This document shows, piece by piece, positions 2,417 through 62,983 of a DNA stretch of 64,000 bases (position 1 is its first letter; each line of letters starts with the position of its first letter). The notes below the pieces were generated by a model. That model was not told the origin of the DNA and made no database searches. It saw nothing but the letters and a program-made list of their open reading frames with translations. The stretch covers positions 1,011,380 through 1,075,379 of the forward strand of contig CAWIGJ010000003.1 of the NCBI GenBank assembly GCA_963835655.1, given 5' to 3'. Position numbers and translations under genes: made by a program. This DNA is from an uncultured Chloroflexia bacterium. GTDB taxonomy: Bacteria > Chloroflexota > Dehalococcoidia > DSTF01 > JALHUB01.

Positions 2417-2618
2417 CGCCGCCTTCCTCTTCCGCTTCCTTCAGTCGCTCAATGCGGCGTCGGCGTTGCATCTCTGACGAAGTCACGATTGCGAGCGCGA
2501 GCAGTGTTCCCACCAGGAAGCCTAGCCATATCTGGCCTCGCTTAGTCAATGCCACGCTCCTTTCTGCGCCGAAGCCTGGCCGGCGCTCCGACCGCCAGCG
2601 TATTCGGAGGAACGTCAT
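2403..2618 (-). CDS. Small single-TM hypothetical protein (possible start TTG near 2549); its TM resembles CorC TM1
   Basis: The ORF overlaps the glmU stop. It contains a hydrophobic helix IWLGFLVGTLLALAIVTS similar to the WVALGLLVGTILLMALVTA helix of the downstream CorC. Confidence 0.25.
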   Translation of the reverse strand: MTFLRIRWRSERRPGFGAERSVALTKRGQIWLGFLVGTLLALAIVTSSEMQRRRRIERLKEAEEEGGGEQQ

Positions 2619-3935
2619 GGTTGACGATCGAGCCGGCCGCCGTTTGCGCCCCAGCGCCGACTTCGACCGGCGCGACGAGCATCGTGTCGCTGCCGATAAA
2701 GGCGCTGTCGCCGATGATGGTCCGGTGCTTGCTCACGCCGTCGAAGTTGCAGGTTATCGTGCCGGCGCCGATGTTCACCTCGTCGCCGACCTGCGCGTCG
2801 CCCACGTAGCTGAAGTGTCCCATCTTCGTGTTGCGCCCGATGCGCGAGTTCTTCACCTCAGCGAAGTTGCCGATGTGCACGCCGCTGCAGACGTACGCGC
2901 CGGCGCGTAGATGACTGAACGGCCCGACATCGATGTTGTCCTCCAGCGTCGACTCCTCGATGACCGACGAATCGACGCGGCAGCGAGAGCCGAGCGTAGA
3001 CTCGATAACCTGGCTGCTTGGCCCGATGACGCACTCCTCGCCGATGACCGACTTGCCGCCGAGATAGGTGTTCGGATAGACCGTTGTGTCCATGCCTATC
3101 GTCACATCGGCGTCGATATAAGTTGTTGCTGGGTCGACGATCGTAATGCCCGCCAGCATGTGACGCCGCCGGATGCGGTCTCGAAGCACCGCCTCGGCCT
3201 GTGCCAGTTGAATGCGGTCGTTGATGCCCAGCGCTTCCGCCGGGTCGCCAGCAGGCACGGCAAGGATGGTTGCGCCTTCGTCGACGCCAATGCTGACCAG
3301 GTCGGTCAGGTAGTACTCTCCGGCGGCGCTCCGCTGAATGCCCGGCAGGCGTGGCCAAAGCCATTCAGCGCGGAAGCAGTAGACGCCCGCGTTCACCTCG
3401 TTCCCCGCTAGTGTCGCCTCGTCAGCATCTGCCTCTTCGATGATTCCGCTCACTCGTCCCGAATCGTCGTGCTGTACGCGCCCCTGTCCGCGCGGATCGT
3501 CGACGAGAGCGGTCAGGAAGGTGAGGTCGGCCTTCGCCTCAAGGTGGCGTGTCATCAGAATCTTCGATTGTGCTTGCCGAGATGAGCGGGACATCCGCGT
3601 TGATGACGAGGATGTGTGCGCTGTCCTTCGCCGCGTCCATCGCCTGCGCGACGGCGTGCCCGGTGCCTAACTGCTCCGTTTGCTCCACCGGTCCGCACCG
3701 AGCCGTCGAGCGCGGCTGAGACGTGCGCCGCCTCATGCCCGACGACAACCACGTAGCGGGCCGGACGCTCGGCAGAGTCGAACGCGCTGCGGACGGCCGT
3801 TAGCACGTGCACCAGCATCGGCCGCCCGGCGAGCGAATGCAGTGCCTTCGGTTTCTTCGACCGCATGCGCTTGCCGAGGCCGGCTGCCAGAACAATCGCC
3901 GTCCAATCCTCTGCCATCAGCTCACCCTGCAACAA
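2542..3935 (-). pseudogene. glmU: glmU (bifunctional UDP-GlcNAc pyrophosphorylase / GlcN-1-P acetyltransferase) interrupted by two +1 frameshifts
   Basis: Three consecutive minus-strand ORFs in three different frames (3555-3935, 3539-3748, 2542-3594) together tile one colinear GlmU. They cover the N-terminal LAAGxGxRM motif, the EQLGTGHA motif and the C-terminal left-handed beta-helix hexapeptide repeats. Single-base indels at about 3686-3693 and 3551-3565 restore one frame. Confidence 0.75.
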
Positions 3936-3995: not shown

Positions 3996-4196
3996 GGACA
4001 CCAGGTTTGTCGCTATTGTCGTTATCGTCCAGAGGGCCGTCTAACACCGGCTGGTGTAACCCCCGTTCATACGAATAGTATCGACGCTGTTCCGGCCCTG
4101 TCAAGATAGGGACTATTGAGGATGCGGCAGCGTCAGGAGTTGAGGCGCGACTACCGTTCCTCGCGGTTGACTACTCGCACGATGGGGACTTTCCTC

Positions 4197-4568
4197 CTAG
4201 CGCTTCCTCTGCGATTGACCGAAACGCCAGGCTGTCCGAAGGATCAGATTCTTCTCGAACGCCTCCTTCATCTGAGGGTTCTCAGCCATCTTCTTCTCGA
4301 CGAAATCCAGTCGCTTGTCGGTCAGCCAAGCTCCAAAGCACATCTGCAAAAACACAATGCACCCTAGCCCAATGGTCAGCAAGGCTGTGAACGGAACATC
4401 CTTCGAGTAGAACAGGGACACGAACCCTATGAAGAAAATGACCAGCGTGCCTATCCAGATAGAACGTACGCCTAATGAACGAAAGTGGATCCCATGCCAG
4501 AGCAGGAAAACCACAGACATAATCAGTGTAACGTCTGCCACCGCGAGAACTACAATTGCAGCCCACAT
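4197..4568 (-). CDS. Small multi-TM hypothetical protein (123 aa) in the low-GC islet
   Basis: Hydrophobic ORF with a GGGGAGG RBS upstream of the ATG. Local GC is about 50% against about 65% in the flanks. Confidence 0.55.
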   Translation of the reverse strand: MWAAIVVLAVADVTLIMSVVFLLWHGIHFRSLGVRSIWIGTLVIFFIGFVSLFYSKDVPFTALLTIGLGCIVFLQMCFGAWLTDKRLDFVEKKMAENPQMKEAFEKNLILRTAWRFGQSQRKR

Positions 4569-4584
4569 CGGCTAACCTCCCCTA

Positions 4585-4944
4585 TTATCGACCACATTTC
4601 CCCAGATCATGGCACAGTTGGTAAATGGCGGCCGCGCTTCCTATATTCGGCTCCGCTATTCTGTAGCCCATCTCGGCCCCCGCCTGCATGAGTGGCGTAA
4701 GGAAGCGGAACACGGCCATGCCAATCGCAATAGTGATGAGTCCCACCACCACGGTTGCAACAGAAAACTCAGGAAGGGTGTACGCGAGCCATGCGACGAG
4801 ACCTAGTAGGAAGCCAATTAATGTCGCCTTGTTCCGGGTGAGGCTCCGTCGGACTGCCCAGAGCACGAAGACCCACATCAAAACGTATGCGACCGCTGAC
4901 ACTGCTGCGATGCGAATTAGTACTTCAGACGTTGTTACACCCAA
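4585..4944 (-). CDS. Small multi-TM hypothetical protein (119 aa, TTG start)
   Basis: Hydrophobic ORF with a GGGAGG RBS before the TTG. It lies 17 nt upstream of the previous gene on the same strand. Confidence 0.5.
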   Translation of the reverse strand: MGVTTSEVLIRIAAVSAVAYVLMWVFVLWAVRRSLTRNKATLIGFLLGLVAWLAYTLPEFSVATVVVGLITIAIGMAVFRFLTPLMQAGAEMGYRIAEPNIGSAAAIYQLCHDLGKCGR

Positions 4945-5186
4945 CCTCCCTGGAGGAGATAATCTTCTCCGCTCGGCTCTTCTATTGGCCCCCGAATCCG
5001 ATGCACGCGTCTAGCCAACGCCGCAGTCTGGAAACTGTCTACGTGAGCACGGTTTCAGGTCAGGGCGCGTTCATGCTGCCGCCTTTTGGCTCGAGAGATC
5101 GCAGAACAAGAGAGTGACACTGGAGGCATCCACGCTAGGCTACCGAGCATTGCCGAAACGCAGACCCCGAACAGAGACCCGTCCCC

Positions 5187-5228
5187 TAGCAGGGCGGCGG
5201 GATTTGAACCCACGACCTGGCTGCAACC
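5187..5228 (-). other. tRNA 3'-half remnant (T-arm plus acceptor 3' strand, no D-arm or anticodon arm); candidate att-site relic
   Basis: The minus strand reads GGTTGCAGCCAGGTCGTGGGTTCAAATCCCGCCGCCCTGC. It folds as a T-stem GTGGG/CCCGC with a TTCAAAT loop and a 7-nt acceptor strand. No 5' half is found nearby. Confidence 0.45.
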
Positions 5229-5247
5229 TTTTCCGATTGCCCTGATG

Positions 5248-5421
5248 TCAGCAACGCCTCAACAGCCAAGCCGAACCAATCGCGAGTATGGCGACGAACC
5301 CTAGACTTATGGCAAGCGATAGCGGAGTCGCAACGCCAACAACTACCTGGAGGCCAATCATCCAGAAGCTGGCCCACGCCACGAGGAGGATCAGAAGCAC
5401 GCTTTTTCGAATCGAGAGCAT
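5248..5421 (-). CDS. Unannotated 57-aa two-TM protein (MLSIRKSVLLILLVAWASFWMIGLQVVVGVATPLSLAISLGFVAILAIGSAWLLRRC)
   Basis: Not in the ORF track because it is under 60 aa. It has a strong RBS GGAGGAGG 6 nt before the ATG, which overlaps the stop of the upstream gene. It sits in the same low-GC operon. Confidence 0.45.
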   Translation of the reverse strand: MLSIRKSVLLILLVAWASFWMIGLQVVVGVATPLSLAISLGFVAILAIGSAWLLRRC

Positions 5422-5431
5422 CTCCCTCCTC

Positions 5432-5770
5432 CTACCGAACCAGCGACGAAACGGCCTCGATCAGGATCGCTCCAACGACCATCAGAAGCACCGATCCAAC
5501 CGAAAAGAGGACAAAGAAGCGTGCGGCAAGACGCGTGGATTGCTGAATGCGCACATCCTTCTGCTCGTCCCCTGTCGTCCCAAAGCAAAAGTAGCCAACA
5601 GATGGAATCATCTTTGCCACTGCCCTGCGATATCGCTCGGGCGTAAGTGCGAGGCAAAGACGTAGTCCAGTGCGAGGAAACCATTCTGGTTCCCGGAACA
5701 TCATGATGAAGAACGCCGCCAGAGAACTGATGGCAACGAGAACCACTAGGGCTTGCGCGACTTCTTTCAA
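5432..5770 (-). CDS. Small multi-TM hypothetical protein (112 aa, TTG start)
   Basis: Hydrophobic ORF and first gene of the four-gene small-membrane-protein operon. Confidence 0.5.
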   Translation of the reverse strand: MKEVAQALVVLVAISSLAAFFIMMFREPEWFPRTGLRLCLALTPERYRRAVAKMIPSVGYFCFGTTGDEQKDVRIQQSTRLAARFFVLFSVGSVLLMVVGAILIEAVSSLVR

Positions 5771-5845
5771 GGCTCCCGCTCCCTATTCTCGGTGCGGATG
5801 AACAGGCGCAGTACTATCCACTAATCTTACCAATCTTGCTTAACT

Positions 5846-5875
5846 CGCATGAGGATAGCGCCACAATAAGATTAT
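5846..5875 (-). promoter_or_regulatory. Candidate sigma70-type promoter for the small-membrane-protein operon (TTGACA, 17 nt, TATTGT)
   Basis: The minus strand reads ttgacaaaggtctcccataatcttattgt about 80 nt upstream of the 5770 start. Confidence 0.25.
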
Positions 5876-6166
5876 GGGAGACCTTTGTCAAGGAATAAGA
5901 CTCGGAAGCAGAGCCGAGTCCTGAATGCTCGTAGTGCCACTACTATCTTAGACGTCGCCTCGAACTGTGCTTAAATGGGACATGCCTCGGACCGTTCCGC
6001 CGCCGCTCCAGCCTCCAAGACGCGTAGTGCGGGCATCCCTGGTCGCCGCAGGCGGCCTGCCCGCACCTGCTCTCTTCCTGCGCCCGGTCAGCGACAACGC
6101 ACGCTCCCGCTCACCCGCAACTCCGCCTTAGAGAGGGCTCTTTTTTTCTTGAATTCAAACAGACAA

Positions 6167-7717
6167 TCAGAGGGGAATGCTGCCGTGCTTTCGACGTGGC
6201 GTCGAGTCCGTCTTGCTGCGGAGCATCTCCAGCGCCCGCAGCACCTGCCAGCGCGTCTCTCGCGGGTCGATGACGTCATCGAGGTAACCGCGTTCCGCTG
6301 CCGCATACGGGCTCGCGAATCGCTCCTTGTACTCCTGCACCAGCTCCGTTCGCAACGCCTCTTTGTCTTCCGCCGACTGCAACTGGTTGCGGAAGATGAT
6401 GTTCACCGCCGCGTCCGGGCCCATGACGGCGATCTCGGCGCTTGGCCAGGCGAGGTTCACGTCGGCCCGCAGGTGCTTCGACCCCATAGCCAGGTAGGCG
6501 CCGCCGTACGCCTTACGTACTATGACCGTCACCTTCGGCACGCTCGCCTCGGCGTACGCGTAGACCAGCTTTGCGCCGTGAGTGATGATGCCGCCGAACT
6601 CCTGTGCCGTCCCCGGCAGGAAGCCCGGCACGTCGACCAGCGTCACGATGGGAATGTTGAACGCATCGCAGAAGCGCACGAAGCGGGCCGCCTTCCGCGA
6701 CGAGTCGATGTCGAGCACGCCTGCCAGGTATAGCGGCTGATTCGCGACGACGCCAACCGTCCTCCCTCCCATCCGGGCGAAGCCGACCACCACGTTCTGC
6801 GCGAAGTGCCGGTGCACCTCCATGAAGTCGCCGCCGTCGACGATACGGTAGACCACCTCCCGGATGTCGTACGGCTTCACCGGATCATCGGGGACGATGT
6901 TGAGCATGTCCTCGGCGCGACGGTGCGGATCGTCGCCGATCTCCAGGAAGGGCGCGTCGTCAACGTTATTCGACGGCAGGTACGACAGAAGGCGCCGGAC
7001 CTCGTGCAGACATTCCTCCTCGCCTTCAATAGCGAAGTGCGCGACACCGCTGCGGGTGGCCTGCGTCATCGCTCCGCCCAACTCTTCGTGTGTCACTTCC
7101 TCCTGCGTCACAGCCCTGATGACATCAGGGCCGGTGATGTACATCTGCGAGGTCTTCTGCACCATGAAGATGAAGTCGGTCATCGCGGGCGAATACACAG
7201 CGCCGCCAGCGCAGGGCCCCATAATGACCGATATCTGCGGCACAACGCCTGAAGCTAGCGAGTTGCGAAGAAAGATGTCGGCGTAACCAGCCAGGCTGGC
7301 AACGCCTTCCTGAATGCGGGCGCCGCCGGAGTCGTTCAGGCCGATGATGGGGCAGCCCGTCTTCACCGCCATGTCCATTACGCGGCAGATCCTCTCGCCG
7401 ACGACCTCCGACAGGGAGCCACCGAACACAGTGAAGTCCTGCGAGTAGACGAACACCTGCCGGTTGTCAATTCGTCCGTAGCCCGTCACGACGGCGTCGC
7501 CGTGGATTCGCTGACCGTCGGCGCCGAACTCGCTCGATCGGTGGACGACCAGACCCTCAAGTTCGGTGAAGCTGCCTTCGTCCAGGAGAATGTCCAACCG
7601 CTCGCGGGCCGTGAGTTTGCCTCGGCTGTGCTGCGCCTCGATGCGTCGCTGTCCGCCACCCTGACGGGCGTCTTCCTTCAGCCTGCGCAGTCGCTCCAGC
7701 TTGTCTCCAACCGACAT
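6167..7717 (-). CDS. Acyl-CoA carboxylase carboxyltransferase beta subunit (propionyl-CoA carboxylase beta / methylmalonyl-CoA carboxyltransferase family)
   Basis: 516 aa with both carboxyltransferase N and C halves. The hallmark motifs are recognisable by eye. No alpha (biotin carboxylase) subunit gene is adjacent. Confidence 0.85.
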
Positions 7718-31934: not shown

Positions 31935-31993
31935 CGGTCGGGGTTCGACTCCGCTCGATTGCGTTCTATAATGGTTCTGGTTAGGTTCTGAGT

Positions 31994-39333: not shown

Positions 39334-39761
39334 CTACTCCAATCGCATGTTGGAGGATGACGAAAGGTCGAAGTAGCCCGGGAAACTCCCGCCCGAAACC
39401 AGCGTGAAGACGCCCGCCAGTGGCGTAATCAGGTTGTATCGATAGTTTGCGCTGACGACGACCGAATTCCCCGGTGCCTGCCCACTTGGATACGTGACAG
39501 AGACCGACGCTAGGTCCAAGCCGGTCGCCGTGTCGCACACACGGCGAACAACCGTCCCCGACTGGGCGCCGGAACAACCAGTCCATGTTCCCGCCGGGTT
39601 GCCAACCACAGCAAAGCGCGCTCCCTCACGGGTAGCGTTCGTCAACTGTATGTAGGACTTGAATCCCATCCCGAAGTCGACGATGCTGAGCGCGAGCAGC
39701 AAGAGGATTGGCAGCACCACGACAAACTCGACCAAACTCTGACTTCGTTCTGAAGACAACC
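39334..39761 (-). CDS. TadE-like protein
   Basis: Start MFQRLSSERSQSLVEFVVVLPILLLLAL. The long ORF-track N-extension is judged spurious. Confidence 0.6.
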
Positions 39762-40020
39762 TTTGAAACATCTCCTCCACTCCCCAGTCTGCTGTTCTCT
39801 CAGCGAATGCAAAAAGCCACCGGCGCGGCCGCCAGTGGCTGACGTGCTCCCCCTGAACCAGCTTTCGGCGGCCCGGCTGCCATGGTCGATTCAAGATCGA
39901 ACTTTAGGCCCGAAGCTTTGCGTCCCGTCCTTTCGAACGGTTTGCCGTTTGTCGAGCAGAACCCAACAACGGGTTCTACTCTTTCAATCGGATGATTGCG
40001 GGAAATCTGCTGCAGGTTGC

Positions 40021-49624: not shown

Positions 49625-49701
49625 GGGCCGCTAGCTCAATTTGGCAGAGCAGCTGACTCTTAATCAGCCGGTTCCAGGTTCGAGTCCTGGGCGGCCTACC
49701 A
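49625..49701 (+). tRNA. tRNA-Lys (anticodon CTT)
   Basis: Cloverleaf folds as GGGCCGC/GCGGCCT acceptor, GCTC/GAGC D-stem, GCTGA/TCAGC anticodon stem with loop CTCTTAA, and a CCAGG/CCTGG T-stem with a TTCGAGT loop. CCA is encoded. Confidence 0.9.
49655..49701 (+). repeat. attL core: the 3' 47 nt of tRNA-Lys, identical to 62920-62966
   Basis: Exact 47/47 match: gactcttaatcagccggttccaggttcgagtcctgggcggcctacca. Confidence 0.85.
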
Positions 49702-49714
49702 GAAAACGAATCTA

Positions 49715-49740
49715 GAAAGGCCCCCTTCGAGGGGCCTTTC
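49715..49740. terminator. Perfect hairpin GAAAGGCCCC cttcga GGGGCCTTTC, likely a bidirectional terminator between tRNA-Lys and the first element gene
   Basis: 10-bp perfect stem. T-rich flank on the minus strand (TTTCTAGATTCGTTTTCTGG). Confidence 0.45.
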
Positions 49741-49758
49741 TGCTTACCTTCCTTAGCA

Positions 49759-49778
49759 TTTGCTAACATTTTGCTAAC
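49759..49778 (+). repeat. Two direct copies of TTTGCTAAC (plus an overlapping TTAGCA/TGCTAA inverted repeat) just inside attL; candidate integrase arm sites
   Basis: ccTTAGCAtTTGCTAACatTTTGCTAACgc. The same 9-mer pair occurs at 62768-62789. Confidence 0.5.
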
Positions 49779-50169
49779 GCTCGTGTGGGCGGTAGTGTCC
49801 CACTAGAAACGCCAAGTGCGCGGTACTCATCAGGAAGGCGGTCGCCTTCGGTCCGACCGACGTTGAACCTGTGGCCTCCCTACGGTGCATAAAGAAGAGA
49901 AGATTGGTCGTTAGGAGAGCGAGGGCGGCTCTCTCTATATCCGTTTTGTGCGAAGCGTCCGCCGCGACGACACAAGCCGCTATATAGTCAAAGGCCTTGT
50001 CCGAATGAAGTTCAGGCTTAGAGACGTTCAGTTGTTTTGCTAACTGACGGAGGGTCTCAAGCACAATCTCATTTCCAGTATTTGGGTCTGTGTCAGCATC
50101 TTCCACTTGCTTGAGCCAAGCGACAGCCTCGGCTTCCCCCAATAGATCCATTTCGCTGTTCTCATCCAT
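49774..50169 (-). CDS. Hypothetical protein (131 aa), element cargo
   Basis: ORF only. No recognisable motif. Confidence 0.4.
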   Translation of the reverse strand: MDENSEMDLLGEAEAVAWLKQVEDADTDPNTGNEIVLETLRQLAKQLNVSKPELHSDKAFDYIAACVVAADASHKTDIERAALALLTTNLLFFMHRREATGSTSVGPKATAFLMSTAHLAFLVGHYRPHER

Positions 50170-50173
50170 CTTG

Positions 50174-51316
50174 TCACCTACTGAACACTAGCGCCGCCAC
50201 CCGCTCTGCGGCGTCCTCTTGCAAGCCGGGGATAACGGCGCTGTAGACGTCGAGGGTAAAGGCGACGCTGCTATGTCCGAGCCGTTCACTGACCACTTTC
50301 GGGTGAACGCCAGCGGCCAACGCAAGGCTGGCGTGACCGTGGCGCAAATCATGCAGCCTTATCGTGGGCAGGCCAGCCGACTTCACGAGGAGCTGGAAAT
50401 GGCCCGAGAAGGACTCGGGGTTTACGGGGCCGCCGTCCGGCGCCGTGAATACCAGCGCCTCGGCGTCGGGCGCCCCTAGTCCAAGAGTCATGCGATCTTC
50501 CAGCACCCGCTTGCGGTGAGCCCTGAGAACGGCGATCGTGGTCGTGTCTAGGCTGATCTTGCGGTTGCCCCGGCCTGTCTTCGGCTCGCTCGAAAGGATT
50601 TGCCCCTTCACGCTGATAAGCGTCTGATTGACGCTGAGGTGGCCAGCCTTGAGGTCTAGGTCACACCACCTTGCCCCCAGTGCTTCGCCGCGTCTCATGC
50701 CCGTGGTGGCGAGTAGGAACAGGGGCTGGTAGTAGTAGTCACCTTCTATATGTCGGAGGAATTGGCCCAGTTGGTCAGCGTTCCATGTCCGAAGGGTATG
50801 GTTACGCTGCTGCTTTGGTGGGCTTGCAGCAGCGGCCACGTTCCTAGTCACGTCACCCCATTTGAGGGCTTCGCCCAATGCGCGGTGCAACGTCGCGTGG
50901 CAATAGCGCACCGTTCGGGGCGATAAACCGCCCTTGCCCTGGCGCCGGCCGCTTTCCAGGAGTTCAGCGTAAAGGCTATTCAACTGGCCGGGGGTGAGTT
51001 TCTGCAACGGCGTGCTACCTATTCGCGGCTTGATATAGCTTTCGACTATCAGCCGGTAGCCCTCGAGCGTTGACGCGCGGACGCTGGCCCGCGCCTGATC
51101 CAGCCATCGCGTCAGGAACATGGCCAGCGTTTCCCGTGAGGGCTCTACAAGGTTGCCCGTGGCGTAGCGCTGAAGCGTCTCCGTTAGCCCGGCCTCGCAC
51201 TCTTTCCGCGTACGAAATCCGCCCTTAGTCCGCTGCCGACGCCGGCCCTTTTCGTCGCGGCCAACGTCGAGCGTATAGCTCCAGGTCCTGCCCCTCTTGC
51301 CGACGTGTCCTTTCAT
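50174..51316 (-). CDS. Tyrosine-type phage integrase
   Basis: Catalytic box R…HDLRH…LGHSSVAFTLDVY. Adjacent to attL and tRNA. Start probably the internal Met (MKGHVGKRG) next to the upstream gene stop. Confidence 0.85.
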   Translation of the reverse strand: MKGHVGKRGRTWSYTLDVGRDEKGRRRQRTKGGFRTRKECEAGLTETLQRYATGNLVEPSRETLAMFLTRWLDQARASVRASTLEGYRLIVESYIKPRIGSTPLQKLTPGQLNSLYAELLESGRRQGKGGLSPRTVRYCHATLHRALGEALKWGDVTRNVAAAASPPKQQRNHTLRTWNADQLGQFLRHIEGDYYYQPLFLLATTGMRRGEALGARWCDLDLKAGHLSVNQTLISVKGQILSSEPKTGRGNRKISLDTTTIAVLRAHRKRVLEDRMTLGLGAPDAEALVFTAPDGGPVNPESFSGHFQLLVKSAGLPTIRLHDLRHGHASLALAAGVHPKVVSERLGHSSVAFTLDVYSAVIPGLQEDAAERVAALVFSR

Positions 51317-52221
51317 GATTGCCCTCCTCTGTGTTCTCGCGCCCATGCGCGATCCCGACAGCGCTTGTCATGGTACTCTTGCAGCCCGTGGGCGACGCCG
51401 AAGAGACGCCCGCAACCTTTGCAGAGCTGCCATCGTTTACCGGCCGCTAGGTCTTCATAGAGTTGCAGCCACATGGCAGTTTCTAAGTCGCCACAGCTCG
51501 ATCCACCTTTGATTCTGCCACCATCAATGGAGAGCCCTAGCCGAACGCTCTCCAACCGTTCCCAGAACACCGACGCCAAGCGAACCTGCTTCTCCTCTAG
51601 GTCCGGATCGTCGTCGAACTCCTCTGCGTCTCGTACCTGCTTCACGAGCCGAACGGCCTCAGAGAACTCGATGGCTTGTATAAGCAAGCGCCAGAGAATG
51701 ATCCTGACTTTGCCGTCCGCGTCCTCCAGATCGGCGAAGATGGGGCGCGGCGGTGATTGCCGAGTGTAGATAATGCCGCCCGGTAGAGGTCGCGGAAGGA
51801 CTGGCCCCCAATTGACGACGAACGCTCGCGCCTCGCGCTGGATCGCCCCGTTGAACGAGGCGTATATGGCAAGGGTTTCCGCAGAATCTTCGCCGCTCGG
51901 TGCCGACCTTTGCCCTGCGTCCTGCGCATGCTTTCCTAGCGCGGCGAAGTCGCTGTAGGGCTGCGGCGTCAGTCTGAGCGGCTCATACCCCTCGCGGCTG
52001 AAGTCCACGAGCGCGCCGTCAAACTGTAACGCGACGGGGTCGCCGCCGACGCGCCAGTGCTGCCTGTTTCCCTTCGGCCACCAAAAGACCGTGAAAGTGT
52101 CGTCGCGTTTCTGCATTTCGGCCCCTATCTCGGCGGAAATCGGCTTGGCCTCGTCTATTATTGCACGGTACCATACCAGTGTCAAGCGATTAGAAGGGGA
52201 TAGGAGCAGAAAAAATGACAC
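51313..52221 (-). CDS. Hypothetical protein with a C-terminal CGNR-like zinc-finger (CxxC…F…C-R-x-R…HR)
   Basis: C-terminus RWQLCKGCGRLFGVAHGLQEYHDKRCRDRAWAREHR resembles the zf-CGNR signature. The N-terminal ~35 aa may be an over-extension. Confidence 0.4.
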   Translation of the reverse strand: MSFFLLLSPSNRLTLVWYRAIIDEAKPISAEIGAEMQKRDDTFTVFWWPKGNRQHWRVGGDPVALQFDGALVDFSREGYEPLRLTPQPYSDFAALGKHAQDAGQRSAPSGEDSAETLAIYASFNGAIQREARAFVVNWGPVLPRPLPGGIIYTRQSPPRPIFADLEDADGKVRIILWRLLIQAIEFSEAVRLVKQVRDAEEFDDDPDLEEKQVRLASVFWERLESVRLGLSIDGGRIKGGSSCGDLETAMWLQLYEDLAAGKRWQLCKGCGRLFGVAHGLQEYHDKRCRDRAWAREHRGGQS

Positions 52222-52439
52222 AGAAGAATGCGATGGCGGTAGACGTTCGCCGGCTGCCGCCGACGGTCACCGTTCCCGAAGCGGGTAGCTTGCTGGGAAT
52301 CAGTCGCGGGTCCGCTTACGAGGCCGCCCGTACGGGGCAAATCCCGGCCCTGAGAATCGGGGCGCGCCTCGTGGTGCCTACGGCGCAGTTGCTCCGGCTT
52401 CTAGAGGGTGTGCCCACCGAGCCGAAGCCGGGCGCCTGA
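52215..52439 (+). CDS. Excisionase/AlpA-family HTH DNA-binding protein
   Basis: VTVPEAGSLLGISRGSAYEAARTGQIPALRIGARLVVPTAQLLRLLEG matches the excisionase-family HTH pattern. Divergent from the integrase. Confidence 0.65.
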   Translation: MTQKNAMAVDVRRLPPTVTVPEAGSLLGISRGSAYEAARTGQIPALRIGARLVVPTAQLLRLLEGVPTEPKPGA

Positions 52440-52549
52440 GCCGACAAGGGCCGTGAGCACGTTGACTGAACTCCGTCCTGCGCGCGCTTTGTGCCCGCGC
52501 TGCCAATTTCGGTTCGAGCTTCTTTCGGAAGTCCGGGTAGAGGATAGCG

Positions 52550-53527
52550 TTGCCTGCCCCAAGTGCCATGTCGTGGTTTGCCCCGAACGGGAGCCGCTCG
52601 ACCAAAGTTGGTGGGCTTGGGCGAATAGCAGAGGGGCAGACCGTGAATCTTGACGACATTCTCCCGCTTCTCGATTCGCCCGCCGGCGATCCTTTCGGCG
52701 GGAAGCCGGTTGCGCCGGACCGTCACACGTGGTTTTTCTGCCCCGTTCATGCGGATGGCAGCAAGCACGGGCGCCGCTCGGCAACCTTTCACCCCCGCTA
52801 TGGCCTGACCTGTTTCGCCGGCTGCGAAAGGCGCGACATCATTGCCGCGCTCCAAAAGCGCGGCGGCGTTCATCCCGCCCATACACCGAGCGACAGCAGC
52901 CCCGCGCATCGCTCGAGGTCAAAAGCGATCCCTGGCCGGATCGTCGCCCGCTACCCGTACCCCGACGAAAGGGGCCAGTTGCTGTATGAGGCCCTACGCA
53001 AGGAGACGGCTGACGGCAAGACATTCCTTTTGCGGCGGCCTAACGGCATGGGCGGCTGGATTTGGAACATTGACGGCATGCGCCGTGTCCTCTATCGGCT
53101 TCCCGAACTCCTGGCGGCTGACCCTAGCGCCTTTGTTTTCATCTGTGAGGGCGAGAAGCGCGTTGATGCGCTTGCTCGGCTCGGCCTCACGGCGACAACA
53201 AACGTAGGCGGCGCCGGGAAGTGGAAACCCGCCTGTAACGACTATCTTCGCCGCCGGCGCGTCGTGATCCTTCCCGACAACGATCCGCCAGGAGCCGAAC
53301 ACGCTGAGCAAGTGGCGCGCTCACTTATGGGCGTCGCCGCTGAAGTCCGCGTGATCGTGCTGCCCGGCCTGCCTTTCAAGGGCGACATCATTAACTGGCT
53401 TGCTGCTGGCGGCAACCGCGAAATACTCCTAGCCCTGGCAGAGCGCCCGCCGACGGAGCGGCCATCTTCCGCCGACTTCCCGAAAGCCGTCCGGGTGAGC
53501 GTCCTTAACGCCGCAGGAGTTGCCTGA
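52550..53527 (+). CDS. Phage/plasmid primase (CHC2 zinc finger plus Toprim)
   Basis: CPVHADGSKHGRRSATFHPRYGLTCFAGC (CHC2). Toprim glutamate in ICEGEKRVDAL and DxD in ILPDNDPPG. Confidence 0.75.
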   Translation: MPAPSAMSWFAPNGSRSTKVGGLGRIAEGQTVNLDDILPLLDSPAGDPFGGKPVAPDRHTWFFCPVHADGSKHGRRSATFHPRYGLTCFAGCERRDIIAALQKRGGVHPAHTPSDSSPAHRSRSKAIPGRIVARYPYPDERGQLLYEALRKETADGKTFLLRRPNGMGGWIWNIDGMRRVLYRLPELLAADPSAFVFICEGEKRVDALARLGLTATTNVGGAGKWKPACNDYLRRRRVVILPDNDPPGAEHAEQVARSLMGVAAEVRVIVLPGLPFKGDIINWLAAGGNREILLALAERPPTERPSSADFPKAVRVSVLNAAGVA

Positions 53528-54750
53528 TGCCTCAGCCTAGCACGCGGGAGGAAGTTGCCATCGTCGCATTCGGTGACGGCTCGCACACCGACCGGGAGCA
53601 AGTTCTGGAAGTGGTAAGCCGCTGGCTGAGAATCGGCGACCTCGAGGCGGTCGACGTCATCATGGCAACCGCTATCGCAATCTACCTGCCGGGCGATCCC
53701 CTTTGGCTTCACGTTGTAGCTCCACCTGGAGGCACCAAGAGCGAGTTACTGCGGTCGCTACAGGGGCCAAGGGTCGTCAGCATTTCCACCATGACGCCGC
53801 AGACGCTCATCTCGGGCCTCAAGGGGCACGGTGAGGACATCGACCTGCTGCCTAAGCTCGATGGCAAACTGCTTATCATCAAGGACTTCACGTCCATTCT
53901 TTCAAAGAAGTCAGAGGACCAGGCGGCAATCTTCGCCGACTTGCGCGAAGCATATGACGGCTATCTTGAAAAGTCCTTCGGCTCCGGCGTCGGGATAAAG
54001 GGCTACAATGCCAGTTTCGGACTCATTGCGGGCGTCACGCCCGCGATAGACATGTTCCGGACTGTCCATTCCTTGCTCGGCGAGCGCTTCCTTCGGGTCA
54101 ATGTTGTTGGCGATGAACAGGGCGCCGTCACGCGCTCCAGTGAGCTTGAGGGCCAAGAGAAGACAATGCGCCAAGAGCTCGGCGCCGCTGTCGGCGGCTA
54201 TCTCACGCATGCCGGCGAATGGGTTGACCCCGACGTGCTGGTAGAAGAGCGTTTCCTTCAGCAGCTCCGGGCACTGGCACAGCTCACGGCTGCCCTGCGT
54301 TCCCCCGTCGCTCGCGACCGTCAGCACCACGTCCTCTATTCGCCTCAGCGTGAGATAGGTACGCGGCTCGTTAAGCAGCTTCAGAAACTTGGCAAGGCGC
54401 TCGCCAACTGGCGGGAACGCCTGATAGTCAGCGCTGAAGATTACGCTACCGTTCGTCGCGTCGCGCTTGACTGCATACCGAGCGGACGAATTGCCGCCCT
54501 GCGGCCGCTCCTAGAGGCGGATACGTGGCTATCGACAAAACAGGTAGGGCAAGCCGCTAACCAGCATACCGACACCGCAAACGAGCATCTTCATGACATG
54601 TGGATGCTCCATCTCCTACAACGCGAAGGTGACGCCGCCTATTCATGGGCAGTAGCGGATGAAACCCGCCAACTGCTAGGAAGGGCGGCTATCGACCTAC
54701 GGACGCAAAACACCCTGAGTAGGCTAGATGAGGCAATGGAATGCCCTTAA
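53527..54750 (+). CDS. Primase-associated P-loop NTPase / replicative helicase-like protein
   Basis: Walker-A-like VVAPPGGTKSE and Walker-B-like KLLIIKDF. Start overlaps the primase stop (ATGA), suggesting translational coupling. Confidence 0.45.
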   Translation: MPQPSTREEVAIVAFGDGSHTDREQVLEVVSRWLRIGDLEAVDVIMATAIAIYLPGDPLWLHVVAPPGGTKSELLRSLQGPRVVSISTMTPQTLISGLKGHGEDIDLLPKLDGKLLIIKDFTSILSKKSEDQAAIFADLREAYDGYLEKSFGSGVGIKGYNASFGLIAGVTPAIDMFRTVHSLLGERFLRVNVVGDEQGAVTRSSELEGQEKTMRQELGAAVGGYLTHAGEWVDPDVLVEERFLQQLRALAQLTAALRSPVARDRQHHVLYSPQREIGTRLVKQLQKLGKALANWRERLIVSAEDYATVRRVALDCIPSGRIAALRPLLEADTWLSTKQVGQAANQHTDTANEHLHDMWMLHLLQREGDAAYSWAVADETRQLLGRAAIDLRTQNTLSRLDEAMECP

Positions 54751-54811
54751 TTGTTAAGACTCAAGGACGCAAAACACCCTGTGCAAGCACGAGGACAAAT
54801 ATAATTTGTCC
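54701..54811 (+). promoter_or_regulatory. Origin-like region: two 17-bp direct repeats GGACGCAAAACACCCTG (54701-54717 and 54765-54781) followed by the AT-rich palindrome GGACAAATATAATTTGTCC (54793-54811)
   Basis: Read directly. Located at the 3' end of, and just after, the helicase-like gene. Confidence 0.5.
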
Positions 54812-55091
54812 TTTTAGAACGTCGGCGGCTACTGGGGGTACTTTGCGCCCCTGGCCTACTGCCTGCCAACAAGCGCGTGTGCTACCCGCTCCGGCCACAA
54901 AATCACGCGGCGACAGCCGCCCAAGCGGTAGGCTCAGTGGATGCGGCAGAACGAAGGCCCTGCCATGACTGCCACCAAAGAGGACTCGGCCCGTGAGCAA
55001 AGCGTTAGCAGGCAAGCGGGATCGAATCTGGAAAAGGCCCAGCAGCGGATTGGTAGTCAGCGGGATTACACACTAACGGAGTCTGACTAGG

Positions 55092-55631
55092 ATGGCCGTC
55101 AAAGCCGAAATAGAGCCCGCCACAGGCGCGCTAGAGCCGCGATCTATCTCGCCGGCGCAACGTCAGCAGCGCCAGCTCGCAGCCGTGAAGACGGGTCTGT
55201 ATGTAAAAGCCCCTGCTGGCCTCAGGCTCAGGTCGCGAAGAGTGCGCCGCTTGGTAAGCAAAATGCGCGCGGTCATGCCGTGGCTTGACGATAGCGACTT
55301 GCCAGCTTGTAGGGCGTGGGCAGAGTTCGAGATTCTAGGCGCTACTGCCTTCGCCGATCTCATTGAGCGCGGCATGACAAACGACAATGGCGATCCGCGC
55401 CGGTTGCTGGGCGAATTCAGGCAACTTCGGCAGGCGCAACTCGGCTATGAGCGCGGTCTAGGAATGACGCCAGCCGCCCGCATGTCCTTGCGGGTAGGCG
55501 ACAGCCGGGCGCGTTCGTTCGATAGGGGCGGCGTTGCCGCATCTGCTGAGGACGTGGCAGCGCTTGAAACGCGCGTCCTGGCGCGTCTAGGGCCGCAAGG
55601 AACGGCGGCAGAGGTGAACAGTGGAGACTAA
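55092..55631 (+). CDS. Terminase small subunit (P27-family-like)
   Basis: 179 aa. Overlaps the terL start by 11 nt. Sequence character fits the P27 small terminase family. Confidence 0.55.
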   Translation: MAVKAEIEPATGALEPRSISPAQRQQRQLAAVKTGLYVKAPAGLRLRSRRVRRLVSKMRAVMPWLDDSDLPACRAWAEFEILGATAFADLIERGMTNDNGDPRRLLGEFRQLRQAQLGYERGLGMTPAARMSLRVGDSRARSFDRGGVAASAEDVAALETRVLARLGPQGTAAEVNSGD

Positions 55632-57000
55632 CGACGCCCTGGCGCAATCGCCCTTGTTGTGGGCGCTGGAGCGGCTTCACCGCCTCAACGGACGGCCTTT
55701 CACGCTCTATGACTACCAGCTTCACGTCCTGGCAAACCGCTCGCCGCGTGTGCTGGTCCTGAAGTCGCGACAAGTCGGGCTATCGACAGCGGCGGCGATC
55801 AGGGCGGCTCACGAATTGCTGTTCAACGAACGGGCGATGGTGCTGGTAGTGAGCCGCGATCAGGACGCCGCCGGCCACTTCCTTGCGACCGTCCTTGACA
55901 TTCTCGACTCACTTGCTGAGCCGCCTGACTTCACGCGGCGCGGCGTCTTTGAGGCGCAACTAAAGAACGGATCACGCATCCTGTCGCAAGCGGCGACAGG
56001 CAAGGCAGGGCGCGGCGTTAGGGCGACACTCGTGGTCTGTGATGAATTCGCCTTTATGGATTATGACGCGGCGATCTTCCGCGCCGTCAGCCCGACGATA
56101 GCGCGCGGCGGGCGGCTAATCGTGATCAGCACGCCCAACGGTCAAAACAATCTCTTCTTCAGACTGTGGCACGGCAACGAAGGCGGCGATTGGTCAAGGC
56201 ATCGCGTCCACTGGAGCGACTGCCCGGCGTTTGATCCGGCATGGTTTGAGCGGGAACGTCCGAACTATACCGCCCGCGACTGGGCGCAAGAGTTCGATTT
56301 GGACTTCGTTGCGAGTGGCGGCGCTGCCTTCCGTCCTGAGGACGTTGACGCCATGGCCGATGGATGGCAGGGCTATCAGCCGCGCAAGGATGATGAGCGG
56401 TTTGCGATCTATGTCACGGGCGTTGACGTCGGCCGCAAGCATGACGCGACCGTGCTAATCACCCTGAGGACTGACAGGCGACCGTTCCAGATCGTCGCGT
56501 TCGAGCGGCTAGTGGGCTGTCCCTACGCTCAGCAGCAGGCCTTGATCGAGGCGCGGGCCGAAGCCTACGGCGGCAAGGTGATAGTCGAGAGCAACGGGAT
56601 CGGCGACCCGGTTCTCGAGGCGCTGCATTGCTACGCCGATCCCTTCGTAACGACTCAACAGAGCAAGGCGCACGGCCTGACGCGGCTCATTCAACTGGTA
56701 GAGCAGCGCCAGATCAAGGGCGACATTCCCGAGTTGCTGTCAGAACTTCGCTCCTACGAATGGGAGGATTCGCGGCTCAAAACAGACTGTGTAATGGCCC
56801 TGATGCTCGCTTGCACGGGCATCGTCGAGTATTACGTATCGTTCCAAGAGCTTCAGGACATGATGGACGAAGGCTCGCGCGGGCGGGGAACTATCGTCAC
56901 AAACTCTGACGGCACGCGCTGGTTGAATTCGAGTTGCGTTGAGGACGACGCCCGAGCGGATGAAGCGGGCGCGTTCCATAGCATCCCGACAGTCTTTTGA
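55621..57000 (+). CDS. Terminase large subunit (ATPase plus RNaseH-like nuclease)
   Basis: Walker A region VLKSRQVGLST, Walker B LVVCDEFAF, and the nuclease Asp cluster YVTGVDVGRKHDATVL. Confidence 0.75.
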   Translation: METNDALAQSPLLWALERLHRLNGRPFTLYDYQLHVLANRSPRVLVLKSRQVGLSTAAAIRAAHELLFNERAMVLVVSRDQDAAGHFLATVLDILDSLAEPPDFTRRGVFEAQLKNGSRILSQAATGKAGRGVRATLVVCDEFAFMDYDAAIFRAVSPTIARGGRLIVISTPNGQNNLFFRLWHGNEGGDWSRHRVHWSDCPAFDPAWFERERPNYTARDWAQEFDLDFVASGGAAFRPEDVDAMADGWQGYQPRKDDERFAIYVTGVDVGRKHDATVLITLRTDRRPFQIVAFERLVGCPYAQQQALIEARAEAYGGKVIVESNGIGDPVLEALHCYADPFVTTQQSKAHGLTRLIQLVEQRQIKGDIPELLSELRSYEWEDSRLKTDCVMALMLACTGIVEYYVSFQELQDMMDEGSRGRGTIVTNSDGTRWLNSSCVEDDARADEAGAFHSIPTVF

Positions 57001-57028
57001 CACTGCCGGGGTAGGAAAGGAAACGGAA

Positions 57029-57391
57029 ATGGCGACAGGAACCTCAAACGAGAAAGTCAGGGAGCACCTGAAGACGCTGAGTGAACAGATGCGCCTTCGC
57101 TACAACGTGCTGGAGGACCGGCGCGCGGCTGAAGAGGCGGGCAACTCAGTGATTCCGCCAGGGCTGCCAGGAGAAACATTCGGCTTCAAGACGACAACGC
57201 GAATCGACGCGCCGGCCATCATGAAAGTTGACCCGAAGGCTAACGCTGCCATGAAGCAGCGGCTCCAGAACGTGTTGGGCGTTGCGAAGCTGCTTGGTGT
57301 TCCCGAAGACAAGGCGCGAGAACAGTTCGAGCGGGAACAGGCAGGCCAGCGGCCGCTCGATAACACCGTGCCGGGATTCAAGGGAGTGTAA
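57029..57391 (+). CDS. Hypothetical phage protein (120 aa)
   Basis: RBS GGAAAGGAAACGG. ATG at 57029 follows terL. Confidence 0.45.
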   Translation: MATGTSNEKVREHLKTLSEQMRLRYNVLEDRRAAEEAGNSVIPPGLPGETFGFKTTTRIDAPAIMKVDPKANAAMKQRLQNVLGVAKLLGVPEDKAREQFEREQAGQRPLDNTVPGFKGV

Positions 57392-57394
57392 ACC

Positions 57395-57715
57395 ATGCAA
57401 ACGGGAGACGTACACCGCGTCGATTTTGCCAACGTTCGGCGCTACGCCGACAGCGAACTCGACCGCTGCTGGAGTTGCCGCAACTTGGCGCGCTGTTCTG
57501 GCGATTGTCACTCGCACGCCGAGCCGCCCGTCGCTGTAAAGGTTAACGGCTCAGCGGATGCGCGGGCGAGACAGCAACTCGATGAAGTCCTGACGGTCGG
57601 CAAGGGCGCCGGTCTTAGTGAAGCACAAGTCCTCGAGCAAAGGCTGAGGCAGCTTCAGGGCAAGCCGCCGGTTCCCGATGGAACTTTCGGCTTCAACGGG
57701 GGTCACGCCCAATGA
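57395..57715 (+). CDS. Hypothetical Cys-rich protein (CWSC…C…C…H)
   Basis: ORF in the structural/packaging module. Possible zinc-binding. Confidence 0.4.
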   Translation: MQTGDVHRVDFANVRRYADSELDRCWSCRNLARCSGDCHSHAEPPVAVKVNGSADARARQQLDEVLTVGKGAGLSEAQVLEQRLRQLQGKPPVPDGTFGFNGGHAQ

Positions 57716-57930
57716 CCCCGCTCATCGAGGAATTGGCGGCGCGCGTCGAAAACGGCCAAATCCGCCTATCGCGACTGCCGCCGGGCGAAACGCGCGATCA
57801 AGTGGCGGCGCGACTGGAGAAGGATCGCGGCGACTTGCAGCGCTGGCTCGACGTAGAAGAGCTTGAAAGAAACAGCCGGGCGAACAGCGCTGAGCCCCTG
57901 CCGTGGGACTTGCGACGGAAGGAACTGTGA
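57712..57930 (+). CDS. Hypothetical protein (72 aa)
   Basis: Overlaps the preceding gene by 4 nt. Confidence 0.35.
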   Translation: MTPLIEELAARVENGQIRLSRLPPGETRDQVAARLEKDRGDLQRWLDVEELERNSRANSAEPLPWDLRRKEL

Positions 57931-58140
57931 ATCGCGTTAGGTGCGTGAAGTGAACGAAGTGAATTTCGGCTCGGACAGGTGTGGCTTCACCTCCTTGTTG
58001 TCTGCCTGTCCGGTCGGCGTGTCGGGCCGGGGTGTGTGACGCGCGACTTCCATCGCGTTGCCATAACGAGCTTGACCTCCTTGAGCTCCCCGGTCCGGAG
58101 CGCTTCAAGTCAGGGTGACGCAATTTGAAAGGATAGCCCA

Positions 58141-59748
58141 ATGGCAGACGATTCAACCCTGAGTATCCTAATTCAGGCTGAGGACCAAGCCTCGAGCGCC
58201 CTTCAAAGCGTCGGCGGCTCCCTTGACGACCTTCAATCAAAGGCGCAAGGCGTCACTGACGCCGCAGGCGACACGGCGGGTGCCATGTCTGACGTTGGGG
58301 ACACGGCGGCAGATGCCGGTTCAAGCCTTGAGGATGCGGGCGGGGCTGCGGCTGACACCGGGACAAACCTTGAGGATGCGGGTAGTTCTGCCGACAGTGC
58401 GGGGATGAGCATCGGCGACCTGACCTCACAGGTTGGTGATCTGGCGGGCGGTCTAAGCGGCCTCACGCCCGAAATGGGAACGTTAACCGCTGGATTAGGC
58501 GGGCTATCTGGGGCAGTGGCCGGACCAGCGGGTATAGCAGCGGCTATTGGCGCTGGAGCGGCGGCCTTCATCGGGCTAGGCGAAGCGGGCGGTCAGTGGG
58601 CAACTGAGGTGATGACCGTTAAAGACATCACCAATATGAGCACGACTGACGTAACGAAGTGGGGCCTTGCGCTGGAAGACGTGGGCGGCGACATGAATCA
58701 GCTCGCTACGATCTCCTACATGCTGGAGCGCCGATTGCAAACGCAAGTAGATGCCGAGAACGCAGGGCAGACGGGTAGTTTGGCGTTGGCGAAAGCGATG
58801 GAGGACACCGGAACGGCCTACAAGGATGCCGAAGGGAACATGCTCGACATGGGTACTATCCTGCCCAATCTGCTAACGAATCTGACAGCCATGACGGATA
58901 AAACGCTGGCCGCTAATGATGCCACGGTAATTCTCGGACGCGGCGGGCGTGAAATGCTAGTGGTACTTCAAGAATGGCCTGATCTGGCGGCCGCCGTCAA
59001 CCGGCAGACTGCCGAGTTGGATACCACGACTGAAGAAGGGGCGAAACACGCCATCGAGTACAACATCGCCATGACGGACATGAAAGACGAGCTGATCATG
59101 CTCGATCAGGACGTTTTACCCGCGTTTACCACATTCCTAGAGGCCCTACCCGTCGGCTTCCATATGGCTGGCGACGCCATGCACCTTCTGTTTAGAGAGA
59201 TCGTGGACGGAGCGCCGTTTTTGCGCTCGATGGTCGATACAGTCTCGGCCGGAGCTGACATACTACACGGCGACTTCAAGGGCGCCGTAGACGACGGAAA
59301 GAACGCCCTGCGAGATATGATTCCCGGCTATAACATGGCGCAGGACGCTATTGCCGGCGTCAACGATGAAACCAAGGATTTGTCTAGTTCGCTCGACGCC
59401 CAATCTGAAAGCCTGAAATCCTCGACTCAGCAATGGGCCGACTACAACTCAGAGATTGAAGCGGCTCTCAGCATGGGCATGACGCTGGAAGAGGCCGTGA
59501 CCAGCGTAAGTCATCCCGGTGTAGACATCACCGGCCAAGAGGTGAACGTTCCTACCTATGACTACGGCGGCTTTGTGCCCGGGGCGCCGGGTGCGCCGCA
59601 ACTTGCAGTTGTGCATGGCGGCGAGACGGTGACGCCAGCGGGCCAACAGCAGTTCGGCACCTTCCAGAACTTCGGTAATATCAACGTCTACCCCCAGAGC
59701 GGCGGCATGGCCGACATGATGGCAGAAATAGCGAAGCAGGTGAGCTAA
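58141..59748 (+). CDS. Tape-measure-like / tail structural protein (Gly/Ala/Asp-rich repeats)
   Basis: N-terminal degenerate repeats DxGxxxxDxG followed by Gly-rich hydrophobic segments, then a helical region. Position is after the terminase genes. Confidence 0.35.
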   Translation: MADDSTLSILIQAEDQASSALQSVGGSLDDLQSKAQGVTDAAGDTAGAMSDVGDTAADAGSSLEDAGGAAADTGTNLEDAGSSADSAGMSIGDLTSQVGDLAGGLSGLTPEMGTLTAGLGGLSGAVAGPAGIAAAIGAGAAAFIGLGEAGGQWATEVMTVKDITNMSTTDVTKWGLALEDVGGDMNQLATISYMLERRLQTQVDAENAGQTGSLALAKAMEDTGTAYKDAEGNMLDMGTILPNLLTNLTAMTDKTLAANDATVILGRGGREMLVVLQEWPDLAAAVNRQTAELDTTTEEGAKHAIEYNIAMTDMKDELIMLDQDVLPAFTTFLEALPVGFHMAGDAMHLLFREIVDGAPFLRSMVDTVSAGADILHGDFKGAVDDGKNALRDMIPGYNMAQDAIAGVNDETKDLSSSLDAQSESLKSSTQQWADYNSEIEAALSMGMTLEEAVTSVSHPGVDITGQEVNVPTYDYGGFVPGAPGAPQLAVVHGGETVTPAGQQQFGTFQNFGNINVYPQSGGMADMMAEIAKQVS

Positions 59749-59757
59749 CACGGGGCA

Positions 59758-59985
59758 ATGTCTATGGCCTTAGTGCGCTGTGGCCGCCCGTACTGTGGCG
59801 GCGCAATCTTGCCCGGCGAGTCCGCCTGTCTCCTTTGCGGCCGCTGCCCCCGCAAACTTGAGCCTATCCGCCTTCCCGTTCGGCGCCGCGAAAAGACGTT
59901 CTCAGTGCTGGCGGCGATAATGGTAGAGGTCCCAGGTGCCTTCCGTTCGCTGAGGGCGGCTGTACCCGAGGGGGTAGACTTCTAG
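59758..59985 (+). CDS. Small zinc-ribbon protein (CxxC…CxxC)
   Basis: CGRPYCGG…CLLCGRC. Confidence 0.35.
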   Translation: MSMALVRCGRPYCGGAILPGESACLLCGRCPRKLEPIRLPVRRREKTFSVLAAIMVEVPGAFRSLRAAVPEGVDF

Positions 59986-60098
59986 TAGCACGTCGCGCCC
60001 GGGCGCTCTAGGTACTGACCGACCGCCTTCTTTCCGACCCCCAAAGCTAGGAACCGCTCGTTTTGCCGCCAGGATCGAAATCTGGGCGTTTCCCGCGC

Positions 60099-60128
60099 TT
60101 GACAGGCGCTAGACACCGGCGTACTATC
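60099..60128 (+). promoter_or_regulatory. Near-consensus sigma70 promoter (TTGACA, 18 nt, TACTAT) upstream of the second recombinase
   Basis: cgcTTGACAggcgctagacaccggcgTACTATcc. Confidence 0.4.
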
Positions 60129-60252
60129 CGCCGTGAAAGACGACGGCGCCCGCTTGGGCGGACGCCGCCTGAGCCAAAGCCTGCTGTTACCAGGCCCGGC
60201 CCGCGCAAAGGATACCATGTCGGACCCCTGATCGCAGCAGCGAAGGGGGTTT

Positions 60253-62966: not shown

Positions 62967-62983
62967 GTGAAGGATCGCTGGCC

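Follow-up and report, generated by a model that had tools for sequence, protein, structure and literature searches.

An orphan 3' piece of a tRNA-Pro gene in foreign-looking DNA at the pccB-glmU junction, most likely a relic of mobile-element integration

Introduction

Between the genes pccB and glmU of an uncultured Dehalococcoidia bacterium lies a short block of DNA that resembles the 3' part of a tRNA, and the question raised by this locus is whether the block is a working RNA, what remains of a former tRNA gene, or a scar left behind by a mobile element. Where a tyrosine integrase targets a tRNA gene, it carries or duplicates the gene's 3' part, and sublocations of integration within tRNA genes were reportedly described by Williams in 2002. 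Partial tRNA genes arising from integration are pervasive in prokaryotes (PMC9897764), and in elements of actinomycetes the attB site overlaps the 3' end of a tRNA (PMC2440964). The low-GC islands by which synteny is broken in Dehalococcoides have repeats of the 3' end of ssrA at their borders, and the signatures of such islands can be erased by deletion and amelioration (PMC3146451).

An initial annotation had described an orphan tRNA 3' half at 5187-5228, within what it took to be an operon of small membrane proteins, and had proposed an integrase crossover as its origin, with a tRNA-like processing signal between genes as the alternative. These proposals were followed up here by analysis of a 64-kb stretch of DNA, referred to as the window, and by comparison with loci from other genomes, metagenomes and viral contigs. 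The coordinates of the features discussed are collected in Table 1.

Table 1. Features of the window and of the orphan copies found elsewhere; positions refer to the window unless a locus is named.
Feature	Position	Strand	Basis or remark
Lower-GC, strain-specific islet, ~2 kb	4100-6162		GC, GC3, homology break
123-aa membrane ORF, last islet gene	4197-4568	minus	Otherwise only in same-strain contig L031
Small membrane protein, 97-119 aa	4585-4944	minus	80% identical to P0122
RHS-type toxin gene 3' remnant (…SGEDYLLQGGWV*)	4938-4988	minus	Upstream of and overlapping the immunity-like gene
C (5189) then TAG, in place of A73 and CCA	5186-5189	minus	Read from sequence
Acceptor 3' strand CGCCCTG, 7 nt	5196-5190	minus	Read from sequence
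T-stem 3' side CCCGC, one T.G wobble with GTGGG	5201-5197	minus	Read from sequence
T-loop TTCAAAT, 7 nt, canonical	5208-5202	minus	Read from sequence
T-stem 5' side GTGGG	5213-5209	minus	Read from sequence
Variable loop AGGTC	5218-5214	minus	Read from sequence
CAGGGC, complement of acceptor-strand GCCCTG	5239-5244	minus	Decayed tRNA-Pro 5' strand or coincidence
57-aa hydrophobic ORF, upstream of the fragment, putative	5248-5421	minus	Assigned to no Pfam or PHROG family; exact look-up without a record
112-aa ORF with two hydrophobic ends	5432-5770	minus	GC3 0.59; no homologue in the collections searched
tRNA-Lys(CTT)	49625-49701		ARAGORN
48-nt exact direct repeat, anticodon stem through CCA+G	49655-49702 and 62920-62967		
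Tyrosine integrase	50174-51346	minus	
Small and large terminase subunits	55092-57000		
Tape-measure-like protein	58141-59748		
Second integrase	60253-61143		
Orphan 29-mer	L003, 1952-1981		Streptomyces camponoticapitis
Orphan 29-mer	L006, 2129-2158		Streptomyces coacervatus
Orphan 29-mer	L024, 1019-1048		One neighbouring ORF Pfam-scanned: DUF1559 and N-terminal methylation domains

Identity of the fragment

The minus strand from 5218 to 5190 reads AGGTCGTGGGTTCAAATCCCGCCGCCCTG and comprises the variable loop, the T-arm and the 3' acceptor strand of a tRNA, corresponding to tRNA positions 44-72. Its T-arm has a 5-bp stem, a 7-nt loop and the GTTCRANYC core, and a folding calculation gave a stable hairpin (pair probabilities, 0.81-0.99). 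The 22-mer that starts at the T-loop is present as a single copy in the window and was recovered from none of 100 shuffles, with up to three mismatches allowed. Thus, the orphan tRNA 3' piece on the minus strand is real, with the T-arm and acceptor sequence that had been quoted for it. The motif GGTTCRANTCC was observed five times in the window versus 0.29 expected, and three of the five sites belong to the tRNA-Lys gene, the tRNA-Leu gene and the orphan tRNA-Lys repeat. Another GGTTCGACTCC motif is found at 31942-31952, in the intergenic gap past a gene ending at 31934; judged by its flanks, which make no proper 5-bp T-stem, it is probably a chance resemblance.

The layout differs in some respects from that first described. 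Within the span 5187-5228, the tRNA-derived part is 5190-5218, and the outer positions (5228-5219 and 5189-5187) are not demonstrably tRNA. The fragment had also been placed immediately after the stop of the 57-aa ORF, but the block starts 29 nt, and its T-arm 34 nt, past the TGA at 5250-5248. The D-arm, anticodon arm and CCA are all absent, as had been stated, and a CAGGGC at 5244-5239, complementary to the 3' strand, had been overlooked.

The fragment is not a gene, which upholds the initial annotation on this point. Searches for a complete cloverleaf, with D-arm and anticodon arm and above the gathering threshold of RF00005 as a functional tRNA would show, found none with either ARAGORN or the Rfam covariance models. 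At default settings, ARAGORN reported no tRNA at the fragment, its calls in the 64-kb window being tRNA-Lys (49625) and tRNA-Leu (62984) and no others, and Rfam gave no match at the fragment at the gathering score, nor any at E<=10 across 4600-5800. Only when the stretch was cut at 5218 did Rfam align the T-arm, as a 5'-truncated match, with the tRNA/tmRNA clan (11.3 bits, E value of 0.0024). CCA is encoded by both real tRNAs of the window and is absent from the fragment, in which position 73 is C, not A, and TAG stands where CCA would be expected. Pairing of an acceptor stem fails as well, with six of seven bases complementary, a spacing of 26 nt versus the 42 expected, and a pairing probability of ~0.01.

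Calls made by ARAGORN under relaxed settings, including the armless mitochondrial models, were rejected as spurious; in one of them the T-loop had been misread as the loop of a CAA anticodon. A tmRNA (ssrA) 3' end was likewise considered as a source and rejected because the acceptor strand fits no tmRNA: the alanine-type strand …GCUCCACCA would be expected where the fragment reads CGCCCTGC, and the truncated Rfam alignment fits the T-arm only, with the acceptor positions gapped or mismatched. The fragment is the sort of sequence that is open to mis-annotation as a tRNA pseudogene.

Parentage and copies in other organisms

A 21-mer of the fragment was scanned as GGTTCAAATCCCGCCGCCCTG and also with G as the fourth T-loop base. 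The 21-mer GGTTCRAATCCCGCCGCCCTG proved rare, with seven matching stretches among 185,579 species represented by one genome each; viral contigs likewise yielded seven matching stretches, and the metagenome collection held twelve of the A-form. The called tRNAs that hold the 21-mer are tRNA-Pro in ten loci (L001, L004, L005, L007, L009, L010, L013, L021, L025 and L027), with two odd calls besides. In all intact tRNA-Pro genes that contain the 21-mer, CCCTG is followed by an A. A C1-G72 first pair is a hallmark of bacterial tRNA-Pro. On this sequence evidence, the fragment derives from a tRNA-Pro-type gene, which confirms the earlier view of a tRNA-derived 3' piece and now names the parent type that had been left unnamed.

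The full 29-mer AGGTCGTGGGTTCAAATCCCGCCGCCCTG, T.G wobble included, also exists as identical, non-tRNA orphan copies at three loci, two of them in Streptomyces (Table 1). DUF1559 together with N-terminal methylation domains, as found beside the third copy, is common in planctomycete proteins. In S. coacervatus, an intact tRNA-Pro gene precedes the orphan by 1.7 kb, the two have the same downstream flank, and a tyrosine integrase lies 107 nt from the orphan, an arrangement from which it follows that the 29-mer sequence acts as an attachment-site repeat elsewhere. The T-stem of the intact tRNA-Pro genes with the 21-mer is GCGGG, that of the orphans GTGGG, and the GTGGG orphan copies may represent a shared, element-borne att sequence.

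Representative genomes of Chloroflexi lack the 21-mer, and the genome and metagenome matches include neither a Chloroflexi locus nor one in synteny with the window; the block is perhaps not native to this host. Used alone as a query, the fragment matched the T-arms of assorted tRNAs only. The fragment recurs unchanged in L031, a separate Logan contig from this strain (2.6 kb, 99.8% identical), and no locus besides this one was found to carry the fragment with its surroundings. The strain is also present in ERR10755942. Exact look-ups of three proteins encoded in the window gave no record.

Genomic setting

The islet that surrounds the fragment lies at a synteny break, between the glmU start codon at 3935 and the pccB stop at 6167. 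Its GC content is 0.556, versus 0.62-0.67 in the flanks, and the GC3 of its ORFs is 0.59-0.66, versus 0.71-0.82 in core genes. Homology to the closest relative (L015) and to three others (L016-L018) ends at about 6163-6171, the pccB stop, and the islet is absent from all four. The low-GC setting described in the initial annotation is borne out. The contigs of three of the relatives end 520-650 nt past pccB, the fourth (L016) has unrelated genes there, and the relatives' gene downstream of pccB was not found in the window. No tRNA was found downstream of pccB in any relative. Since homology stops at pccB and is followed in the relatives by differing or broken sequence, the junction is both a synteny break and a variable hotspot, and the site downstream of pccB looks like a lineage-wide hotspot. 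The best matches of PccB itself are metagenome proteins, 82-93% identical, and on the evidence of this protein the host belongs with uncultured Chloroflexi of Dehalococcoidia type.

The post-pccB DNA is unlike in each relative (L015 11552-12198, L017 11552-12071, L018 5381-5900 and L016 11552-14600). A basic ORF of 103 aa is found there in L015 and an antitoxin-like sequence in L017, while L016 encodes proteins of 197 and 401 aa.

None of the four small islet ORFs belongs to a Pfam or PHROG family, and no mobility gene was recognised amongst them. The islet DNA showed no similarity to the phage and plasmid collections, and its proteins had no match in viral contigs. What had been called an operon is in fact a mosaic, the 303-nt gap that contains the fragment also holding the tail of a lost toxin gene. 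The islet is foreign as well as mosaic.

The lost toxin gene was recognised through the small membrane protein encoded downstream of the fragment, the family of which is tiny (four representatives in 1.84 billion proteins). In three soil contigs (L032-L034), the gene of its relative P0122 overlaps by 4 nt the end of a gene for an RHS/YD-shell protein of 486 aa. DNA homology to these contigs, at 84%, spans 4662 to 4971 and then ends, and 4988-4938 can be aligned with the 17 C-terminal residues of the RHS protein from L032, …GEDYL..GGW.* being still readable. Thus, 4585-4988 has the makings of an orphan RHS cassette, namely a gene that elsewhere follows an RHS toxin gene and a retained 3' remnant of that toxin gene. 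Judged by sequence, the 4585-4944 protein is likely encoded by an immunity gene orphaned from its RHS toxin cassette, with a presumptive immunity function. As in RHS and other polymorphic toxin loci, the gene encodes a protein 80% identical to one whose gene overlaps the end of an RHS gene, with the last residues of the toxin upstream; unlike in those loci, an RHS core gene is missing, as judged by tblastn against the window, and the likeness concerns the surroundings of the fragment, not the fragment. In L032 (8544-10312), the C-terminus of the RHS protein is a glycine-rich hydrophobic stretch, and it is possibly a membrane-inserting toxin.

A tRNA-Lys island in the same window

The window also contains a complete integrase-made island, a 13.2-kb prophage remnant that extends from 49625 to 62967 (Table 1). 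Its second repeat copy ends 17 nt ahead of the tRNA-Leu(TAG) gene at 62984. The island shows that this genome hosts tRNA-targeting integrases. Like the fragment, it includes an orphan tRNA 3' part that was called by neither ARAGORN nor Rfam. It differs in having an exact repeat of 48 nt, an integrase next to the tRNA, and genes for terminase and tape-measure proteins, none of which accompanies the tRNA-Pro fragment. The pair can serve as an internal standard for fresh versus old integration products.

Origin of the fragment

The initial annotation attributed the fragment to an integrase crossover. As would be expected of an attachment-site repeat, the block is identical to the 3' part of a tRNA, as seen against tRNA-Pro genes and orphans of other organisms, and its flanking DNA is atypical and absent from close relatives. 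The expected second copy in an intact tRNA, bounding the element, was not found within the 64-kb window: no further copy of the fragment, bounding the islet or elsewhere, was detected with up to three mismatches allowed, and neither ARAGORN nor Rfam found a tRNA-Pro gene. Nor does an integrase adjoin the site, the two integrases amongst the scanned ORFs of the window, at 50.2 kb and 60.3 kb, lying in the tRNA-Lys island, 45-55 kb off. The search for direct or inverted repeats bounding the islet gave only short, chance-like matches. The geometry of integration puts the intact tRNA at higher coordinates, where ~950 nt of islet is followed by syntenic core genes from 6163, and these ~950 nt contain no tRNA. 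Additionally, the fragment has an interior position in the islet; the closest breakpoint of homology that can be demonstrated, at 4971, is 217 nt away.

Because no second copy, tRNA-Pro gene or nearby integrase was found in the 64 kb, the crossover origin that had been proposed is plausible but unproven. With neither partner nor integrase in place, it requires a later deletion or rearrangement, or else that foreign DNA brought the fragment in as a passenger. The abrupt edges round a perfect 29-nt match and the missing host-style CCA both favour a foreign or element-borne origin.

Amongst the readings considered, we favour with moderate confidence that of a stranded attachment-site relic that is no longer functional, and we infer an integrase origin and an order of events as follows. 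The block would have started as an attachment-site copy consisting of 29 bases of the tRNA-Pro 3' part, from the variable loop to position 72, and would have arrived with, or been made by, an integrative element at the hypervariable site that follows pccB. Subsequent deletions and recombination events, amongst them the insertion of the orphan RHS toxin-immunity cassette, may then have stripped away the partner copy and the integrase, and the present-day fragment would have no specific activity save that of a stable T-arm hairpin if transcribed.

A complete tRNA-Pro gene could instead have decayed in place, losing ~17 nt of the D and anticodon arms and keeping CAGGGCa (5244-5238) together with the 3' part. 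CAGGGC indeed lies 45 nt upstream of its complement GCCCTG and provides six of the seven bases of CAGGGCG, the 5' strand in intact tRNA-Pro genes with the same 3' strand, and tRNA genes often sit at synteny breaks. However, CAGGGC occurs in 3.5% of the 70-nt windows of the sequence, and any complement of at least 6 nt in 7% of them; nothing in the 19 intervening nt resembles a D-arm or anticodon arm, and neither Rfam at E<=10 nor ARAGORN at default settings detected anything, the relaxed call being spurious. Graded decay would be expected of an old pseudogene, whereas the block is a perfect 29 nt with abrupt edges, its CCA is missing though host tRNAs encode CCA, and no relative has a tRNA downstream of pccB. 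Decay in place is, in our judgement, unlikely. A still lower probability attaches to the processing signal that had been offered as the alternative, in which a functional tRNA-like mRNA element, an acceptor/T-arm minihelix, would be cut by RNase P or RNase Z, or would stabilise the transcript, and so separate cistrons. Acceptor/T-arm minihelices suffice as RNase P substrates, the fragment shares its orientation with every flanking ORF, the candidate 5' strand begins 3 nt past the stop of the 57-aa ORF, and the T-arm hairpin is stable. The folding calculations speak against such an element, as the acceptor pairing has an ensemble probability of only ~1%, and the forced tRNA-like fold (-19.3 kcal/mol) costs 3.1 kcal/mol relative to the minimum free energy fold (-22.4 kcal/mol), which prefers a GCAAUC/GGUUGC hairpin. 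Folding was also no better than that of shuffles (z of -0.05 for the 91-nt stretch and +1.11 for the 331-nt gap). Furthermore, conserved, diverged copies were not found, the sole other copy being from the same strain; the homologous cassette in L032-L034 has the toxin gene at the position of the fragment and no fragment; and the upstream ORFs are possibly not genes. A processing element is for these reasons highly improbable.

A more specific version of the last proposal is modelled on the 56 nt at 5244-5189, which would form a minimal, armless element of tRNA-like shape in which six acceptor base pairs stack on the T-arm and 26 nt are inserted, kept because RNase P or RNase Z cuts the polycistronic transcript at this point. 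If this were true, a domesticated att-site relic would uncouple the expression of the neighbouring small membrane-protein genes, but we consider the proposal a slimmer prospect again, and a free-standing 3' half of a split tRNA would be far less likely than the 56-nt armless element. That the T-arm is a chance resemblance could be argued from the other GGTTCGACTCC in the window (31942), which has no proper T-arm and looks like chance. Against this stand 29 consecutive bases identical to tRNA-Pro-derived sequences of other phyla, the correct geometry of stem, loop and acceptor strand alike, and the result of the shuffles, and coincidence is scarcely credible.

Comparison with known systems and significance

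pSAM2 targets a tRNA-Pro gene. The stranded attachment-site relic favoured here resembles the integrative and conjugative elements of actinomycetes (PMC2440964) in its block running from mid-tRNA to the 3' part, in the lack of a 5' half, and in its location in strain-specific, foreign-looking DNA. Amongst attR-type orphan repeats, it shares its 29-mer with the integrase-adjacent S. coacervatus orphan, but differs from such repeats in having no partner copy, intact tRNA-Pro gene or integrase within reach, in being internal to the islet, and in an identity that ends at position 72, short of the discriminator and 3' end. The ssrA islands of Dehalococcoides (PMC3146451) belong to the same phylum and are similarly low in GC and synteny-breaking, with short, tRNA-like 3'-end repeats. 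Those repeats derive from ssrA, stand in tandem within 100 kb past the intact gene and are the work of a serine recombinase (PMC3146451), whereas the source of the fragment is tRNA-Pro and its acceptor strand is unfit for tmRNA.

Altogether, the fragment is most likely an ordinary, dead relic of mobile-element integration that produces no working RNA. On its own it matters little, stranded tRNA gene fragments being a pervasive and well-understood by-product of integration, and it represents a new instance of a known phenomenon. It does mark the pccB-glmU junction as a recombination hotspot at which foreign DNA gathers, including the orphan RHS-type immunity gene.

Other observations in the window

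The glmU gene beside the islet (2542-3935) is spread over three reading frames in the window. The same-strain contig L031 is one base shorter at 3689 and at 3557 and reads as an intact GlmU; the window and L031 also differ by three substitutions. These frameshifts relative to L031 indicate that glmU in the window contains two assembly indel errors or is a real pseudogene. Elsewhere in the window, a c-di-GMP-I-GGC riboswitch aptamer (RF03167) was identified on the minus strand at 39863-39956, with 63.7 bits versus a gathering score of 59, upstream of a 186-aa ORF at 39334-39894.
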